DNA of 64,000 nucleotides from Nannocystis bainbridge. Lineage in GTDB: Bacteria > Myxococcota_A > Polyangia > Nannocystales > Nannocystaceae. Made by a program: the position numbers and the translations under genes. The number at the start of each line of letters is the position of its first letter. The first letter of the stretch is position 1. The stretch covers positions 2,144,001-2,208,000 of the forward strand of contig NZ_JAQNDL010000003.1 in assembly GCF_028368995.1 (NCBI RefSeq). Reading direction: 5' to 3'. This document shows positions 18,226 through 48,443 of the stretch, piece after piece. A model generated the notes under the pieces. It was not told where the DNA came from and did not search any database. It worked only from the letters and a program-made list of their open reading frames with translations.

Positions 18226-18810
18226 GTGGCCTTCCCGCCGCTCGACGAGATCTTGCCGCATCGGCCGCCGATGCTGCTGCTCGACGCGCTGACGGCGGCC
18301 GAGGCCGAGTCGGCGACCTGCCGCGCCACCGTGCGGGCGGGCGCCCCGTTCGTGGTCGGCGAGCGCGTCTCCTCGCTCATCGCGCTCGAGTACTTCGCCC
18401 AGACCGTCGCCGCCCTGTTCGCCTACAAGGCCCGCAGCGGCGCCGGCGGGCCGTTCCGCGGCCTCCTCCTCGGCGCCCGCGACCTCGAGCTCGCCGCCTC
18501 GCACCTGCGCGTCGGCGACGTCCTCGACGTCCACTGCCGCGAGCAGTGGGCCAGCGGCCCGGTCGCCCAGTTCCACTGCACCTTGAACCGCGGCGGCGAG
18601 CAATTGGCCACCGGCGCCGTCACCGTCCTGCGCGGCGACCCGGCCGAGTTCGCCGCCGGCGGCTCCGACCTGTCCCCCGGGACAGCCGCCTCCGACCTGT
18701 CCTCCGGGACATCCAGCCTATCCTCTACGCCAGCCTCCGACCTGTCCCTCGGGACATCCGCCGGGGAGCCGTCCGTCACTCGCCTCGACCTCGTGGAGCC
18801 CGCGCCATGA
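18226..18810 (+). CDS. ApeP-like hotdog dehydratase with repeat-derived C-terminal tail
   Basis: ILPHRPPMLLLD, LEYFAQTVAA, GLLLGAR; tail made of three SDLSxGT units. Confidence 0.8.
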   Translation: MAFPPLDEILPHRPPMLLLDALTAAEAESATCRATVRAGAPFVVGERVSSLIALEYFAQTVAALFAYKARSGAGGPFRGLLLGARDLELAASHLRVGDVLDVHCREQWASGPVAQFHCTLNRGGEQLATGAVTVLRGDPAEFAAGGSDLSPGTAASDLSSGTSSLSSTPASDLSLGTSAGEPSVTRLDLVEPAP

Positions 18811-22195: not shown

Positions 22196-22400
22196 CGGCG
22201 AACCTGCGCAGCAAGAGCGCCCGTCCGTAAGCGCCGACGAATGTAGCCCCGCTCCCCCATACGGCGAACCTGCGCAGCAAGAGCGCCCGTCCGTAAACGC
22301 CGACGCACGTAGCCCTAGGGCCCCCGTGCAGCCCGCTCCCTCCGCGCGGCGAACCTGCTCAGCTCGAGCACCGCTCCATAATCGCCGAAGAACGCAGCCC
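22196..22400. repeat. Three degenerate ~55-bp direct repeats
   Basis: CGGCGAACCTGC[G/T]CAGC... begins at 22196, 22262 and 22347. Confidence 0.75.
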
Positions 22401-22754
22401 CAAGACCCCCGCGCAGCCCGCTCCCCGCGCGCAGGAGGACGCGCCGAAAGCACGCCAGATGGCGGTTGTTCGGCGGCCAGCCCTGGCCGTCGAACAGCCG
22501 CCCCCCGGTCGGTTGCCTTCAACGATGACTGCATCGGAGCCGAGCGCGGCGCGTCGGCCTCTCACGGCTGCAGCCGTGCCGGGGGTCCGGGGAAGGGTCG
22601 ACCGACAATACGAGGCAGGATGAGCGCGAGGAACGAGCGTTCATCCCGACGCTGAACTGTCGGTCGACCCTTCCCCGGACCCCCTGCGAGACGCAGTCGG
22701 CAATTCGCGAAGCCCCCGCCCCCACTCCCCAAGGACATGTCCCCAAGGACAGAT

Positions 22755-36877: not shown

Positions 36878-39800
36878 TTACTCGGACGACCGCGCCCGCA
36901 CCCCGAGGCGCGTCAGCCCTTCGCGGTCGACGTAGACCCACTCCGGCCCCTCGTCGTCGAGGCGCGCCTGCTGGATCTGCCCGTCGGCGATCGTCGCCGA
37001 CCCGCCTGCCGGCAGCGGCTTCGTGTGCAGCGTCGGCCCGTCCGCGCCGCCGCGGGCGAACACCAGCCGCCGCGACGTCCCGGCCACCAACACCGCCAGC
37101 ACATCCGTGACGCCGTCGCCATCGAAGTCCTCGACCGCCAGGCCGCCGATCTGCGCCTCCTCCGGCCCGAGCCGCAGGTCCCGGCAATCGCCGCGCGGCC
37201 CGCTCGCCCCGCCGTGACACACCCGCAGCGTCGCCCCGCCGGCGTAGCCCGCGGCTGCCAGCACATCGCCGTGACCGTCGCCGTCGACATCGCCGGCCGC
37301 CAGCGGCCCCGCGCTCCAGCCCAGCGGCCACGTCTTCGGCGCGCTCGCGAACCCGCCGCTCCCGTCGCCCCCGTATACATGCGCCCCGCCGCCCCACGAC
37401 AGCAGCAGCGCATCGAGCCGCCCGTCGCGATCGACATCGCCGAGCGCGAGCCCCATCGCCCCCGCCGCCACCAGCGGTCCCCTGCGCCCCGCGCTCAGCC
37501 CCTCGGGCCCGCCCAGGTGCGTCACCAGCACCCCGGCCGGCTCCACGTACACCAGGTCCGCGTCGCCGTCGCCGTCGACGTCCCCCGCGCGCAGCGGACC
37601 GCTCGCGCGCACCTCGAGCCCCCGCTTCGCCACGGGCACCCAGCGATCGCCCCGCGCCCGCCACAGCCCGGTCCCCTCGGTCTGCGCCGTCAGCAGCTCA
37701 TCGATCCCATCGCCGTCGAAATCGAGCAACAACCCGGCCGCATTCTCAGATGCCCCAAAGGACATGTCGTATCGAACATGCCCCAAAGAACCTGTCCCAT
37801 CGAACCTGCCCGTCCCCACGCCCCCGTCACGACCGAGCACCACCACCTCGTCGCTACCATCACCATCGACGTCCCCGAGCTGCACCGCCTGCGCCTGCCC
37901 CGTCTGCCGCGCTGGCGAACGATCGGCCACCAGCACCCCCTGCGGCCCCCCGCGCAGCACTTCCAGCCCGTCCTCTCCCGCGGCCGCCAGATCGGGCACA
38001 CCATCACCGTCAAAATCCGCCACCGCCAGCGCGCGCGGCCGATTGCTCGCCGTCGTCATCCCACCTGCCACCAACTGCGGCAACCACGGCAGCGCATGCC
38101 CGAGCTGCACCGTCACCCGTGGCGACGCGAACCGCTCCGACAGCATCAAAACATCCACGCGCCCGTCGCCGTCGAGCTCTTCCACCAGAGCCCCGTCGCA
38201 GCGCGATGTTGAAACCCACACCGCCGGCGCGAACAAGTTCCAGGCCCGCCCGGTCGCTATAATTAAACCGTCGTCGCGGCACACCAGCAGATCGGCCAGC
38301 CCATCGCCGTCGACATCGGCGCGCGTCAGCCCCAGTGTGCGCCCCTCGGGCAGCGTCCCCGCGATCCACCGCTGGCCCGCGCTGCGGCTCTCGATCACGA
38401 TCTGCGGCCCCTCGCTGCCCTGCCCGACATGCAGCAGCTCGTCGCCCGCGTACTCCGCCGAGAACTCCCCCACGATCAGATCGTCGCTGGCCGCGAACTC
38501 GCGCGACATCGAAGCGTCGACCAGCGCGAACGCCTCGCCCGTCAGCGCCAGCGTCAAAAGCCCCGTCGTCGCCTCCGCCGCCTCGCCCGCGAACGCACCT
38601 TGCAGCGCCAGCAGCTCGCTGCGGCCGTCGCCGTCCGCGTCGAAGCCGACCACTCGCCGCGGATCGCCCGCGAACGCGAACTCGACCGGCGATGCGAATC
38701 GTTCACCGACCCCGCGCGCGCTCCACAGCCGGCCCGCCTGCACCTCGCCGGCGCTCGCCTGCCCCGCGCGGCGCCACGTCACCACGTCGTCGACCCCATC
38801 GCCGTCGAGGTCGGCCAGCGCCAGCGCGGCCGCCCCGTCCGGCCCCGGCGAGCGCACCGGCGCGGCGAAGCCCCCCTCCTGCCCGCGCAGCACCACCAGT
38901 TCGCCGCGCTCGCCGTCGCTGACCACCAGATCGGTCCACCCGTCGCGGTCGAGGTCGCGCGCCACCATCGGCCCCGTCAGCCCCGCCGCCCGGGTCGAGA
39001 ACCACGGCGTGAACCCGAACCCCGGTCGTTCGCGCAGCACCGTCGCCCCCGCGCCCGCGTCGCGCACCACCACCTCGTCGCGCCCGTCGCCGTCGACATC
39101 GCCGACCGCCAGCCCGTCCCACGCCTCCGCGTCGGTCGTGGTCCGCCGCTCCGGCGCCGCCAGCGGCAGCCGCGTCAGCGCCGGCTGCAACCTCGACATG
39201 ACCAAAAGTTCATGCCCGTTCGGACCTGTCCACAACGACATGTCCGAAGGGCCCGCCGCCACCGGCCAGCGCCGGGCCTCGCGCGCCCCGCCCGCCCCGT
39301 CGCCGAACACCACTGCCACCTCGTCGAGCAGCGCGTCGATCACCGCCAGGTCGAGCGCCCCGTCGCCGTCGAGGTCGGCCGCCAGCGCCTGCTGCGGACT
39401 CGCCCCCGCGTACAGCTCGCCGCCGGCCCGCAGCCCGCCATCACCTGTCCCAAAGAACAGCCTCGCGGTCCCCTCGCCCGCCAGCGTCACCACCACGTCG
39501 ATCCGCCCGTCCCCCGAGAAATCACCCGTCGTCACCGCCGTCGGCCGCTCTCCGGCGGCGATCGGCGCTCCGCTCGCCATTCCCATCGCCCCGGCCCGCA
39601 GCACCCGCAGATCGCCCGCCTCGGCGTCGGCGACGATCAGCTCCGCGCGCCCGTCCCCGTCGAGATCGGCGGCCGCCACCGCGACCGGCTGCGGGCCCAC
39701 CGGCACCTTCTCGACCGCGCCCCCGCGCAGCAGCGCCACCGCGGCCTCACCCGCCAGCGGCGCCGCGATCTCGAGCCGCCCGTCGCCGTCGAAGTCGGCG

Positions 39801-41406: not shown

Positions 41407-41700
41407 CAATGACAAGAGCGACGCCACGCTCGCCGCCCCCACGACGCCACGCGCGCCGCAATCCCGGGACCGGCAACGCCCGTCACACCCGACAATGACA
41501 CGAGCGGCGCCGCGCTCGCCGCCCGCACGACACCGCGCGCGCCACGATCCCGGGATCGGCTACGCCCGCCACTCCGGACAATGACACGAGCGGCGCCACG
41601 TTCGCCGCCGCACGACGCAATTCGAGAGCCGCCACCCCCGCGGCGTCACTCCCGACAGTGACACGCTCGGCGCCCCGCTCGCCGCCTCGCTGCTCTCGGC
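41407..41700. repeat. Four degenerate ~86-bp tandem repeats
   Basis: CA[A/G]TGACA.G..CG.CGCC.CG.TCGCCGCC at 41407, 41493, 41579 and 41656. Confidence 0.8.
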
Positions 41701-44226: not shown

Positions 44227-44913
44227 CTAACCCATGAAGCGCAGCGGATCGTCGGGCCGCTCCGCCTGGCTGCGCAGCGCCCCCTTGCGCTGCGAAGCGA
44301 TCGCTGCCCGCGTGCGGTCGACCAGGCTCGCCGGCACCCGGATCTTCGAGAGCTTGCCGGTCAGCACCACCCCGCCGGTCAGCAGATCGCGACGGACCCG
44401 CTGCACCGCCGAGAATTGCAGCCGCTGCGGCTCTCCGCGGCGCGGCACCTCGAGCACCGCCGTATCGGTGACCAGGATCGCCCGCTGGCTGAATTGCTCG
44501 CGCACCAGCCACAGCAGCATCGGCGACAGCAGCACCGCGATCGGCCGCCACAGATCGGCGAACGGTTGGTCCCAGAACTCCGGCGCCAGCAGGCTCGCCA
44601 CCAGCAGCACCGCCGCGCTGATGCCCCCGATCCACGCCAGCGGCCGCAGGTCGAAGCCTGCCTTCGCGTCCCACCACACCAGCGCCTCGCCGAGCCGCAG
44701 GTGCCGCGCGATCTCCAGCGGCGCCGTCCCCGGCGACGGCGGGGCCCCGGGCGCCAGCACACGTGGCCCTCCGGGCATGTCCATATAGACAGGTTCTTGC
44801 ACCGCCTCGGGCGGCAGATCGTACACCAGCGGCCCCGGCGGCAGCGCCGGCCGCTCGCCCCCGGAGACCACCCGGAACGCCCGTCGGCGCGCCTCGGGGG
44901 ACTCGTCCGTCAT
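44227..44913 (-). CDS. Membrane protein with bPH-like C-terminal domain
   Basis: Two TM segments followed by AILVTDTAVL; ATGA-coupled to aroC. Confidence 0.65.
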   Translation of the reverse strand: MTDESPEARRRAFRVVSGGERPALPPGPLVYDLPPEAVQEPVYMDMPGGPRVLAPGAPPSPGTAPLEIARHLRLGEALVWWDAKAGFDLRPLAWIGGISAAVLLVASLLAPEFWDQPFADLWRPIAVLLSPMLLWLVREQFSQRAILVTDTAVLEVPRRGEPQRLQFSAVQRVRRDLLTGGVVLTGKLSKIRVPASLVDRTRAAIASQRKGALRSQAERPDDPLRFMG

Positions 44914-46019
44914 CGCCGCAGCCCGTCCATCGTCGCCAGGCGGGCCCGCAGCATGTGGTCGCACAGGACCAGCGCGGCCATCGCCTCGACCATCGGCACC
45001 GCCCGCGGCAGCACGCACGGGTCATGGCGCCCGCGGGCCTGGAACGTCACCGCCTCGCCGGCGCGATTGACCGTCTGCTGCGGCTGGAAGATCGTCGCCA
45101 CCGGCTTGAACGCGACCGCCAGGCGGATCGCCTCGCCGTTGCTGATCCCGCCCTGGATCCCGCCTGAATGATTGGTGACCGTCCGGACCTGCCCGCGCTC
45201 GTCCTTGACGAATGGGTCGTTGTGCTGCGACCCGCGCAGCCTGGTCGACGCGAACCCGTCGCCGACCTCGAAGCCGCGGCTGGCCGGCAGGCTCATCATC
45301 GCCTTTGCCAGGTCCGCCGTCAGCTTGTCGAACACCGGCGCGCCCCAGCCCGCCGGCACCCCGCGCACCACGCAGCGGACCACCCCGCCGACCGTGTCGC
45401 CCTGCTTGCGCGCCGCCTCGATCACCGCCGTCATGTCCTCTGCGACATGTCCCTCGGGACAGCGAACCGCGCTGGCGTCGACCTGCGCGCGCGTCAACGT
45501 CGCCTCGTCGACCGCGGGCAGCACCACGTCGCCGACGGCCGCCACCCACGCCACGATCTCGATCCCGTGCAGCGCCGCCAGCAGGTCCTCCGCCAGCGTC
45601 CCCGCCGCCACCCGGCCGACCGTCTCGCGCGCCGACGCCCGCCCGCCGCCGGCCACCGCCCGCAGCCCGTAGCGCGCGTCGTACGTGTAATCCGCGTGCG
45701 ACGGCCGGTACAGCGCCGCCAGGTCGTCGTAGTGGTGGCTGCGCGCGTCGCTGTTGCCGACCATCATCATGATCGGCGTGCCGAGCGTCAGCCCCGTCTC
45801 CGGCTCGAGCCCGCTGTACACCTGGACCGCGTCGGCCTCCTGGCGCGCCGAGGTCAGCTTGCCCTGGCCCGGCCGCCGGCGCGCCATCTGCTCGGCGATC
45901 CGCGCGTGCGGGAACGGATGCCCCGCCGGACAGCCGTCGACGACCACCCCGAGCCCCCCGCCGTGTGACTCGCCGAAGGTCGTGACCCGAAAGACATGTC
46001 CGAAGGTGTTGCCGCTCAT
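44910..46019 (-). CDS. aroC: Chorismate synthase
   Basis: TTFGESHG, RPSHAD, GGRASARET, NHSGGIQGGISNG, GRHDPCV. Confidence 0.98.
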   Translation of the reverse strand: MSGNTFGHVFRVTTFGESHGGGLGVVVDGCPAGHPFPHARIAEQMARRRPGQGKLTSARQEADAVQVYSGLEPETGLTLGTPIMMMVGNSDARSHHYDDLAALYRPSHADYTYDARYGLRAVAGGGRASARETVGRVAAGTLAEDLLAALHGIEIVAWVAAVGDVVLPAVDEATLTRAQVDASAVRCPEGHVAEDMTAVIEAARKQGDTVGGVVRCVVRGVPAGWGAPVFDKLTADLAKAMMSLPASRGFEVGDGFASTRLRGSQHNDPFVKDERGQVRTVTNHSGGIQGGISNGEAIRLAVAFKPVATIFQPQQTVNRAGEAVTFQARGRHDPCVLPRAVPMVEAMAALVLCDHMLRARLATMDGLRR

Positions 46020-46055
46020 GGTGTCCCCAAGAACATGTCCTTCACGCCAGGAAAC

Positions 46056-46904
46056 TCAGACCAGGAACTCTTGCACGAGCGCGCGCCAGCGCTCGGCCGC
46101 CTCGATGGCGACGGTGTGACCGACCTCGGGCAGCACCACCGCGCGGGCCGGCCCCGCGAACGCCCCTGCCAGCGCCTCCAGCTCGCCCGCGGGCGCCAGG
46201 CGGTCGAGCGCCCCCGCCAGCAGCAGCGTCGGCGCCTGGACCCGCGGCGCCAGCTGCAGCGGCGTCCACGGCGAGTCCGGGGTGTCGTTCAACGTCTGTG
46301 CGAACAGGGCGGAGATCCCCGCGTACGTGTTGCGCTGGACCGTCGCCCTGACGAACGCCTCCAGCACCGCCTCGTTGGCCTCGAGGTAACGCGGCCCGAG
46401 CGTATCGCCCAGGCTCACCCACGCCAGCGCCTCGAGGTCGCCGGTGCGCAGCGACTCCTGCCACGCGCGGACGATGACGCGTCCGAGCACCCCCCGCCCC
46501 GCGCTCACGCCCGACAGCACCAGCCGCCGCACCCGCTCGGGCCGCTCCGCCGCGATCGTCAGCGCCACCCGCCCGCCGAACGAGAACCCGCACAGGTCGA
46601 CCGGCTCCGTCACCCCGAGCGCGTCCAGCAGCCGCTCGAAATCACCGACGTGCACCGGCGGCGACACATCGGCCACGTCGAGCCGCGTCTGCCCCTGCCC
46701 GCGCGCCTCGTACACGATCACCGGCCGCTGCCCCGACAGCGGCCGCACCTGCCCGCCCCAGCTCGACAGCGTCTGCGTCATCCCGCCGAGGATCACCAGC
46801 GGCGGAGCCGCCCCGTCCTCCGGCCCCGCGCGCCGATCGACCCGGACCTGACCGACCAGGCCTGCACCGGCCACGGGATCGAGGATGTCGACGAACTCCG
46901 GCAC
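46056..46904 (-). CDS. Alpha/beta fold hydrolase
   Basis: YEARGQG, GFSFGG, GALD, VGH; start approximate. Confidence 0.88.
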   Translation of the reverse strand: MPEFVDILDPVAGAGLVGQVRVDRRAGPEDGAAPPLVILGGMTQTLSSWGGQVRPLSGQRPVIVYEARGQGQTRLDVADVSPPVHVGDFERLLDALGVTEPVDLCGFSFGGRVALTIAAERPERVRRLVLSGVSAGRGVLGRVIVRAWQESLRTGDLEALAWVSLGDTLGPRYLEANEAVLEAFVRATVQRNTYAGISALFAQTLNDTPDSPWTPLQLAPRVQAPTLLLAGALDRLAPAGELEALAGAFAGPARAVVLPEVGHTVAIEAAERWRALVQEFLV

Positions 46905-47021
46905 GCGCGCCACGAGCCTAAGGCCCCGCGCCGGGGGATTCAACCCACCCGCACCCGCGCGCGCGCACGGCCGCACCCGCCCCCGCTTGCACGCGCCGCG
47001 CGCCCCGCGTATCCCCACGCC

Positions 47022-47255: not shown

Positions 47256-47480
47256 TTCTCACCAGCCGCCCGCGAGTGATTCTCACCCGCCGCCCGCGAG
47301 TCCGTCCCGTCACCCCTCCGCGAGTGATTCTCACCGCTCGCGAGCGTTTCTCGCCCGCCGCCCGCGAGTCCGCCTCGTCCCCCCTCCGCGAGTGAGTCTC
47401 ACCGCTCGCGAGCGATTCCCGCCCGCCGCCCACGAGTCCGTCTCGTTCCCCTCCGCGAGTGAGTCTCGCCCGCGAGCTCG
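47250..47480. repeat. Nested repeat: 20-24-bp units forming a ~68-bp higher-order period
   Basis: GAG-initiated units at 47250, 47274, 47298, 47322, 47342, 47366, 47390, 47410, 47434 and 47457; several contain GTGA-N3-TCAC. Confidence 0.85.
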
Positions 47481-48250: not shown

Positions 48251-48443
48251 CCCCGCCATCACCTGTCCCCTCGGACAGCTCACTCGCGTCGCCCCATCAC
48301 CTGTCCCCTCGGACAGCCTACTCGCGCCGCCGTCACCCCGCCACCCCGTTCTCCAGGCCCCCCGGACAGCCCTCTCCCGCGGCCGCACGCCCCGCGCACC
48401 ATTTTTACAATCCCCGCCGCGCCCCCTGTGGCATCCCTCGGCC

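Follow-up and report, generated by a model that had tools for sequence, protein, structure and literature searches.

How does the gene for a housekeeping enzyme come to carry a DNA palindrome in several copies within its reading frame? The question is raised by aroC, the chorismate synthase gene of Nannocystis bainbridge, in the 64,000-nucleotide stretch analysed here (the window; contig NZ_JAQNDL010000003.1, positions 2,144,001 to 2,208,000), for which a first-pass annotation had proposed that the palindrome was written over conserved coding sequence by substitution. Alignment with related genomes bears out this mode of origin, and the copies in aroC belong to a family of thousands, confined to the genus Nannocystis, that stands at hundreds of coding sites, has recast codons and, in aroC, a few residues, and may be read by a protein on double-stranded DNA.

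The basic unit of the family is a 14-bp palindrome, TGTCC-N4-GGACA, present in the 11.05-Mb genome (five contigs, 71-72% G+C) in 1987 exact copies and in about 6,200 with no more than one mismatch. The spacer of 4 bp is strict, spacers of 0-3 and 5-9 bp being found at only 0-16 sites. The palindrome first remarked on, GACATGTC, is real but is not the basic unit; in aroC it is the junction of the units at 45434-45447 and 45448-45461. The 10-mer GGACATGTCC is likewise the junction of two abutting 14-bp units, and has 956 exact matches, 3160 with a single mismatch and 8718 with two mismatches, where base composition predicts 9.5, 332 and 4996. Among 6-bp palindromes the most over-represented is ACATGT, whose 4234 copies are 7.3 times the number predicted in the same way. 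The register of abutting units is equally strict: the distance from one 10-mer match to the next is 14 bp in 2654 cases and 28 bp in 579, compared with 21 cases of 13 bp and 10 of 15 bp, and 833 of the 956 exact 10-mers have a motif-like neighbour 14 bp to one side or the other, as do only about 5% of random positions. Stretches from three motif-rich relatives show the same 14-bp spacing. There are 1596 runs of two units and 236 of three, and arrays reach 10 units; exact half-site pairs standing alone number 1696, and isolated copies of GGACATGTCC number 661. Within the window, GACATGTC occurs 13 times where 0.75 are expected, a count reached in none of 100 shuffles, and TGTCCNNNNGGACA with at most one mismatch occurs 40 times where 1.83 are expected.

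The product of aroC matches PF01264 over its full length (profile positions 1-327 of 327, E=2e-130, 434.8 bits), and an orthologue was matched in 39 of the 41 related genomes searched. The tandem sites lie where they were first placed, as a 28-bp double unit of two abutting palindromes inside codons 185-196, encoding VRCPEGHVAEDM, and a further pair does stand just upstream of the start codon (Table 1). Sequences of aroC taken from 30 related genomes were aligned by codon, and every row is free of gaps both from the invariant RCP to GD(T/S) and from FG to FR.TTFG. The spacing to the flanking AroC motifs is therefore normal and the palindrome was written by substitution and not by insertion, as the first-pass annotation held. 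The motif is found in aroC only in the six closest genomes (93-100% AroC identity), which encode RCPEGHVAE(A/D)M and FGHVFR; other genomes of the genus encode RCPDP(A/T)(A/T)AEAM or RCPDATVAEAM at the internal site and FG(TI/TA/AT/RA)FR at the N-terminus. The N-terminal GHV is restricted to the same six, the remaining rows having GTI, GTA, GER and the like at the same length.

The changes at the internal site are TGC to TGT, GAC to GAG or GAA, CCC to GGA, GCG to CAT and GCC to GTC, with a further change of GCC to GAC (Ala to Asp), present in this genome alone, that improves the second unit (45434-45447). The overwritten residues (G7-H8-V9, E189-G-H-V192 and D195) all fall in variable columns and the surrounding invariant residues are intact, so that while the motif is indeed present in codons 6-12, the idea that it overlies conserved N-terminal residues does not hold for G7-H8-V9. 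The six motif-bearing species all keep TGT, CAT and GTC in aroC, five of the six keep GGA, and their sites differ at synonymous positions within the spacers. The A/T-ending codons are as unusual as had been supposed: with a G+C content at third codon positions (GC3) of 0.946, only 20 of the 369 codons of aroC end in A or T, and these make up 8 of the 18 motif codons compared with 12 of the 351 others (Fisher odds ratio 22.6, p=5e-7). Neither of the outcomes that the first-pass annotation named as refuting, in-frame insertions at the sites or a GC3 within the motifs equal to background, is borne out. In the genome as a whole Gly is encoded by GGA in 2.4% of cases, His by CAT in 9% and Cys by TGT in 9%. 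Codons 283-285 (45165-45173), AAT CAT TCA, are a run of three rare codons ending in A or T that belongs to no motif copy.

Clustering of substitutions was discarded as an argument. The CPEGHVA window has 10 inter-clade changes while codons 166-172 have 14, and since it is not the most diverged window of the gene the case rests on what was written, not on the number of changes. A gene-conversion donor for the 28-mer was likewise discarded, there being no near-identical copy in the genome and seven other matches with three mismatches each. At codons 30-34 four synonymous changes are private to this genome, of which TGC to TGT and CAC to CAT go towards the motif and GCC to GCG and GGC to GGG are neutral; the unit at 45919-45932 may be a site in the making.

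The double unit upstream of aroC fills the 36-nt gap (46020-46055) between the hydrolase stop codon and the aroC start codon; its edge lies 7 nt from the stop codon (46056-46058) and the centre of its nearest unit about 20 nt away. The N-terminal site is not a phased spill-over of this hydrolase 3' array, as its offset of 39 nt is no multiple of 14, and the two are separate elements, both in the zone behind the stop codon. Motif copies or a 14-bp array are present at the hydrolase-aroC junction in 9 of the 11 same-genus rows, with none seen in L007 and L017. In a more distant species (L008/G009) this junction has a non-palindromic variant in three direct repeats of 14 bp, reading GGCCCAAAGCACCT in the aroC sense (46527-46590 of the joined loci L039-L042). 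In 68 kb no further 14-bp array of complex sequence was seen, the second block with a lag of 14 being a G-run. This variant may be a 'dialect' of the palindrome family.

The family is confined to the genus Nannocystis. The exact 10-mer occurs in 640-956 copies in six large Nannocystis genomes, the same six that bear the motif in aroC, in 43-206 copies in five other members of the genus, and in no more than 28 in 30 genomes of other genera. Its position relative to genes was assessed with a custom, crude gene caller (7930 genes, 82.6% of the genome). Exact units are found at 1.454 per kb in gaps between convergent genes, 0.627 in tandem gaps, 0.221 in divergent gaps and 0.082 in coding DNA, an 18-fold difference between the first and the last. 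Pairings of GACATGTC with stop codons, in which a match between convergent genes counts twice, number 1591 at 0-120 nt after stops, with a peak in the 20-40 nt bin, compared with 53 in the 120 nt before stops; 313 fall in the 120 nt before starts. Arrays of at least two units occupy 650 of the 1459 convergent gaps (45%), 659 of the 5009 tandem gaps and 96 of the 1457 divergent gaps. Only 30 of the 1757 tandem gaps shorter than 50 nt contain an array, which makes the hydrolase-aroC junction a rare case. Between species the intergenic arrays are kept at the same junctions, with whole units gained or lost.

About a third of the exact 10-mers (318 of 956) lie in coding DNA, and here the overwriting seen in aroC is repeated on a large scale. 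Within well-scoring genes (6.45 Mb in total), 576 exact units lie at a depth of 150 nt or more, compared with 15.7 after synonymous codons had been shuffled within each gene, and the control patterns with halves swapped, a spacer of 3 or a spacer of 5 give 6, 5 and 1. A DNA-level signal able to bend codons and residues, suggested at first from aroC, is thus supported genome-wide. By frame, the units number 48, 183 and 345 against 1.7, 2.7 and 11.3 expected. Their flanks have the normal periodicity of coding DNA (G+C of 0.774, 0.561 and 0.932 at the three codon positions), and 493 of the 576 are unambiguous. The coding 10-mer is found 87 times in the rare-codon frame GGA-CAT-GTC against 1.3 expected, 16 times as nGG-ACA-TGT-CCn against 1.0, and 136 times as nnG-GAC-ATG-TCC against 25, and the tripeptides DMS, TCP and GHV reach 3.15, 1.71 and 1.49 times their expected frequency. 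In Pfam-supported genes of the window, those for an FG-GAP protein and an acyltransferase, coding sites stand at positions common to four species.

These coding copies are conserved above their surroundings. In about 300 kb aligned with each of two related species (G005 and G001, about 89% identity), third positions within motif cores are kept at 112 of 125 (89.6%) and 81 of 88 (92.0%), compared with 683 of 854 (80.0%) and 487 of 625 (77.9%) in the flanks (p=0.0097 and 0.0016). The least conserved third positions are those in the 4 nt adjoining the unit (74 of 105 and 51 of 80). Of the coding sites, 38 of 79 and 31 of 61 retain every one of the ten specified bases, as against 239 of 664 and 161 of 484 frame-matched control windows (p=0.037 and 0.01). 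Selection was inferred in the first-pass annotation; these data fit it and molecular drive alike.

Table 1. Motif copies, genes and other repeats in the window; fractions give the specified bases matched, and lower-case letters the departures from the unit.
Feature	Position	Strand or reading	Context
aroC coding sequence, open reading frame	44910-46019	minus	chorismate synthase, 369 aa
Exact unit TGTCC-CTCG-GGACA, 10/10	45448-45461	plus-strand reading	aroC codons 187-191 (C-P-E-G-H)
Abutting unit TGTCC-TCTG-cGACA, 9/10	45434-45447	plus-strand reading	aroC codons 191-196 (H-V-A-E-D-M)
Weaker coding unit TGcCC-CGCC-GGACA, 9/10	45919-45932		aroC codons 30-34 (C-P-A-G-H)
N-terminal site, unit TGaCC-CGAA-aGACA, 8/10	45983-45996		aroC codons 6-12 (FGHVFRV), with the half-site
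N-terminal site, half-site TGTCC	45997-46001		aroC codons 6-12 (FGHVFRV), with the unit
Double unit upstream of aroC	46022-46049		hydrolase-aroC gap
First unit of the pair, TGTCC-CCAA-GaACA, 9/10	46022-46035		
Second unit of the pair, TGTCC-TTCA-cGcCA, 8/10	46036-46049		
Upstream alpha/beta-hydrolase gene, open reading frame	46056-46913	minus	PF00561, E=3.4e-20
Unit TGTCC-ATAT-aGACA, 9/10	44778-44791		about 120 nt 3' of the aroC stop codon
FG-GAP repeat protein gene, 1057 aa	36878-40051	minus	
Coding array in FG-GAP gene	37750-37811		positions common to four species
Coding array in FG-GAP gene	39215-39265		positions common to four species
Tandem repeat, period 27 nt	18663-18719		exact CTGTCC-N4-GGACAG core
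Tandem repeat, period 38 nt	48256-48331		exact CTGTCC-N4-GGACAG core
Tandem repeat, 85 bp	22248-22432		intergenic by crude gene calls
Tandem repeat, 86 bp	41407-41618		intergenic by crude gene calls
Tandem repeat, 68 bp	47266-47467		near a called gene start by crude gene calls

The 1.1-kb aroC coding sequence contains three units with no more than one mismatch, and two more lie nearby; the average for coding DNA is 0.275 per kb. The FG-GAP gene of the window has coding arrays of four to five units with a period of 14 bp. Two of the longer tandem repeats in Table 1 each contain the palindrome as a core, which is thus also embedded in larger repeat units, and the three of 68 to 86 bp are unrelated to the family.

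Is it the sequence or a hairpin that is conserved? There is no stem extension beyond the 5-bp arms at 921 of the 1987 sites, compared with 1089.5 with shuffled partners, and pairing is not in excess at the 493 sites whose flanks are non-motif sequence. Watson-Crick pairing at flanking and spacer positions is 1066 against 899, 786 against 895 and 584 against 661 under independence; pairing there is near or below independence and does not continue past the 5-bp arms. A 10-bp hairpin between adjacent 10-mers was also considered, and of 3862 departures from the 10-mer consensus 686 have a compensating change, the figure with shuffled partners being 391; this covariation is weak and the unit was then redefined as TGTCC-N4-GGACA. 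The best conserved part of each 10-mer is the central CATG. Predicted RNA folds of 748 arrays have the same stability on either strand (-19.74 and -19.10 kcal/mol, p=0.05). No U-tract is seen: in the 12 positions that follow 421 oriented isolated pairs, T nowhere exceeds a frequency of 0.35. The arrays therefore do not look like intrinsic (Rho-independent) terminators. No gene for a Y1 transposase of the type associated with repetitive extragenic palindromic (REP) elements (RAYT) was found, PF01797 having no match in this genome (90.5% complete) and matches in 6 of 14 control genomes, and Rfam at gathering thresholds gave no family match in the window.

The reading favoured here, with a probability of roughly 0.4, is that the motif is a genus-specific double-stranded-DNA site for a putative symmetric protein, built and kept by substitution. 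A sequence-specific reading is preferred because there is no pairing beyond the arms, no RAYT gene and no U-tract. On this model a putative dimeric protein would recognise TGTCC-N4-GGACA on double-stranded DNA, and the strict 14-bp register would let dimers bound at abutting sites touch along the DNA, giving cooperative, phased binding. Sites would be best tolerated, or of greatest use, where transcription units end, and would also arise inside genes by point substitution where the protein tolerates change. In aroC it would seem that partial matches provided by conserved codons, Cys-Pro (TGY CCN) and Arg-Val-Thr (CGG GTC A), acted as seeds, to which the rare codons TGT, GGA, CAT, TTT and GCA were then presumably recruited, with replacement of Pro-Ala-Ala by Gly-His-Val and of Ala by Asp in variable columns. 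The copies might be maintained either by selection on the chromosome or by molecular drive.

Several observations weigh against a protein site. The two species used for the conservation comparisons are related to each other and so are not independent, and the gene calls are crude. Any role in blocking transcription fits poorly with a double site in the interior of the aroC gene. RNA 3'-end hairpins and REP elements are classically found where these copies pile up, behind stop codons and in convergent gaps. Two adjacent 10-mers can pair into a stem of 10 bp, and 833 of the 956 exact copies have a motif-like neighbour 14 bp away. In the arms, compensated double variants number 596 against 301 under independence, although much of this excess is, by our own estimate, due to the G+C-rich background. 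In transcript orientation mispairs of the G-U type exceed those of the A-C type (600 against 405) and A to G changes exceed T to C (494 against 373), yet C to T and G to A are nearly equal (558 and 537). These mispair and A to G asymmetries hint at some constraint at the level of RNA, although the strand test was set aside as evidence of an RNA role, its outcomes being marginal or mixed.

Part of this evidence favours an explanation that is unlikely but is the strongest of the alternatives, namely that the palindromes act as single strands in the manner of REP hairpins, as stabilisers of RNA 3' ends, factor-dependent terminators or DNA hairpins. Abutting palindromes would give the stems, and copies within genes would be by-products neutralised by translating ribosomes. 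In keeping with this, the copies favour the region after stops over those before stops or starts, the arrays favour convergent over tandem and divergent gaps, pairs are the commonest run length, the mean predicted fold of an array is close to -19.7 kcal/mol, and G-U-type mispairs are in excess. In aroC-sense RNA the upstream and N-terminal copies can also pair with each other, enclosing the start codon (minus strand, 45985-46060), with a predicted fold of -26.8 kcal/mol (z=-1.94) compared with -17.1 kcal/mol on the opposite strand. On the other hand the internal region of aroC folds no better than shuffled sequence (z=-0.38), and hairpins do not explain why 1696 exact units stand alone with arms of only 5 bp and pairing without extension, nor, by base pairing alone, why the central CATG is conserved. 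The want of a U-tract, of a sense-strand preference, of a RAYT gene and of an Rfam match in the window tells in the same direction, and coding copies conserved above controls would not be expected of neutralised by-products.

A signal for DNA uptake or recombination, comparable to the DNA uptake sequences (DUS) of the Neisseriaceae and the uptake signal sequences (USS) of the Pasteurellaceae, is quite unlikely. Here a surface or competence protein would prefer palindrome-bearing DNA, and transformation with recombination would spread motif-improving substitutions by molecular drive. A short, genus-specific motif in thousands of copies, sited at poorly conserved residues and with a variant repeat form in a more distant member of the genus, matches the genomic signature of such a signal. 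The coding fraction of about a third is close to the 34.5-65% given for uptake sequences in the excerpts of PMC2817400, the frame bias and tripeptide enrichment recall the doubling reported in the same excerpts, and the clustering at gene ends recalls the DUS pairs in terminators described in part of PMC2397512. Homologues of ComEC and DprA are present, but they match in 10 and 11 of 14 control genomes too and carry little weight, and competence is not known for Nannocystis. Phasing at 14 bp and arrays of up to 10 units would be needless for uptake and are no feature of DUS or USS, and the steep order of convergent over tandem over divergent gaps would need an extra explanation.

A more specific version of the protein model, in which phased operator arrays bound by a dedicated, genus-specific protein mark the ends of transcription units, is distinctly unlikely. 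If true it would amount to a boundary or roadblock system, based on protein and spread over the whole genome, that takes the place of U-tract terminators at 71% G+C, under selection strong enough to hold hundreds of coding copies, those in the essential AroC included.

Less probable still is a mutational by-product with no reader, made by template switching that perfects quasi-palindromes or by sequence-biased short-patch repair. Clustered multi-base changes at constant length, apparent seeding by pre-existing half-matches and the strand symmetry of the whole pattern are compatible with it. Template switching, however, would perfect palindromes of every kind and not a single sequence with a single spacer length; the register of 14 bp between abutting units and the 18-fold difference in density between convergent gaps and coding DNA are left unexplained, and complementarity of the arms is not the feature that is conserved. 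That the aroC sites are an artefact of chance or composition can be dismissed, since although a conserved Cys-Pro-x-Gly-His in preferred codons already gives 8 of the 10 motif matches, the counts in the window (13 against 0.75 and 40 against 1.83) and in genes (576 against 15.7) are refuted as chance by shuffling and the control patterns give only 1-6 copies.

The locus is a clean codon-level case of a DNA code laid over protein coding, in a housekeeping gene of constant length, with rare codons and several replacements, and it lies outside the two bacterial families in which overwriting by uptake sequences is textbook knowledge. In a genus that is studied for its natural products, it points to a putative factor that would recognise a specific sequence at thousands of genomic positions. 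The motif can also serve in practice to mark where transcription units end in Nannocystis genomes, and calls for caution in codon-based gene finding, codon optimisation and tests of selection by the ratio of nonsynonymous to synonymous substitution (dN/dS) on overwritten genes.

How does the family compare with known systems? No description of the motif in bacteria came to light: among the listed titles of papers matching GGACATGTCC in full text none concerned a bacterial genome repeat, the top-ranked being p53 papers, and a search on Nannocystis palindromes and Sorangium cellulosum repeats gave nothing relevant by title or abstract. The met boxes of MetJ are tandem palindromic operators bound cooperatively by small repressors. 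The Nannocystis arrays share with such operators a palindromic unit repeated head to tail with a fixed period, so that adjacent dimers could contact each other, and have both the fixed spacing of half-sites (1987 against at most 16) and the fixed register (2654 against 21 and 10). Known operator arrays, however, are few per genome and lie in promoters, whereas this family numbers thousands, avoids divergent gaps and enters coding DNA. Rickettsia palindromic elements (RPE) are found inside protein-coding genes, including housekeeping genes. Their insertion adds a segment of peptide, in contrast to the constant length of the 30 aroC orthologues.

In the G+C-rich genome of Mycobacterium tuberculosis, poor in U-tract terminators, the TRIT is a recurring sequence at well-defined mRNA 3' ends, according to the excerpts of PMC3384566. 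The Nannocystis motif is alike in being a specific recurring sequence at gene 3' ends in a G+C-rich genome; in contrast to it, the TRIT is not reported inside coding sequences.

REP elements and REPINs with their RAYT, on the features given in the excerpts of PMC3116915 and PMC3337134, are likewise short palindromes in hundreds to thousands of copies, mostly extragenic, behind stop codons and between convergent genes, with copy numbers that differ between close relatives. The family as a whole occupies this extragenic 3'-end position, although the three coding sites of aroC do not. The Nannocystis arms measure just 5 bp and pairing is not conserved outside them, so that the conserved complementarity of REP stems is missing, and no Y1/RAYT gene was found in the genome. 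REPs carry a GTAG-type head, and none is seen in the Nannocystis motif. The motif in aroC also differs from both REP/REPIN and RPE in having arisen by substitution, while the intergenic arrays do differ by whole units, so that insertion or slippage does take place there; the view of the first-pass annotation that the family is unlike REP therefore stands for the mode of origin in aroC, but not for location, which is REP-like, nor for the whole-unit insertions and deletions between genes.

DUS and USS, as described in parts of PMC2817400, PMC2397512 and PMC3630211, differ from the Nannocystis motif in that the latter is a perfect palindrome whose spacer is fixed at 4 bp, forms arrays of as many as 10 units phased at 14 bp, has 18 times the density in convergent gaps that it has in coding DNA, and occurs in a different phylum, the Myxococcota, in a genus with no known uptake bias or competence. 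They are alike in the high number of copies, running to thousands, of a short motif particular to the lineage, a large genic fraction made without change of length, a frame bias with enriched tripeptides, a preference for poorly conserved residues, clustering at gene ends and lineage 'dialects'. With its many lineage-specific copies, and coding copies made by substitution with a bias in frame and peptide, the Nannocystis motif resembles the DNA uptake sequences more than the REP elements.

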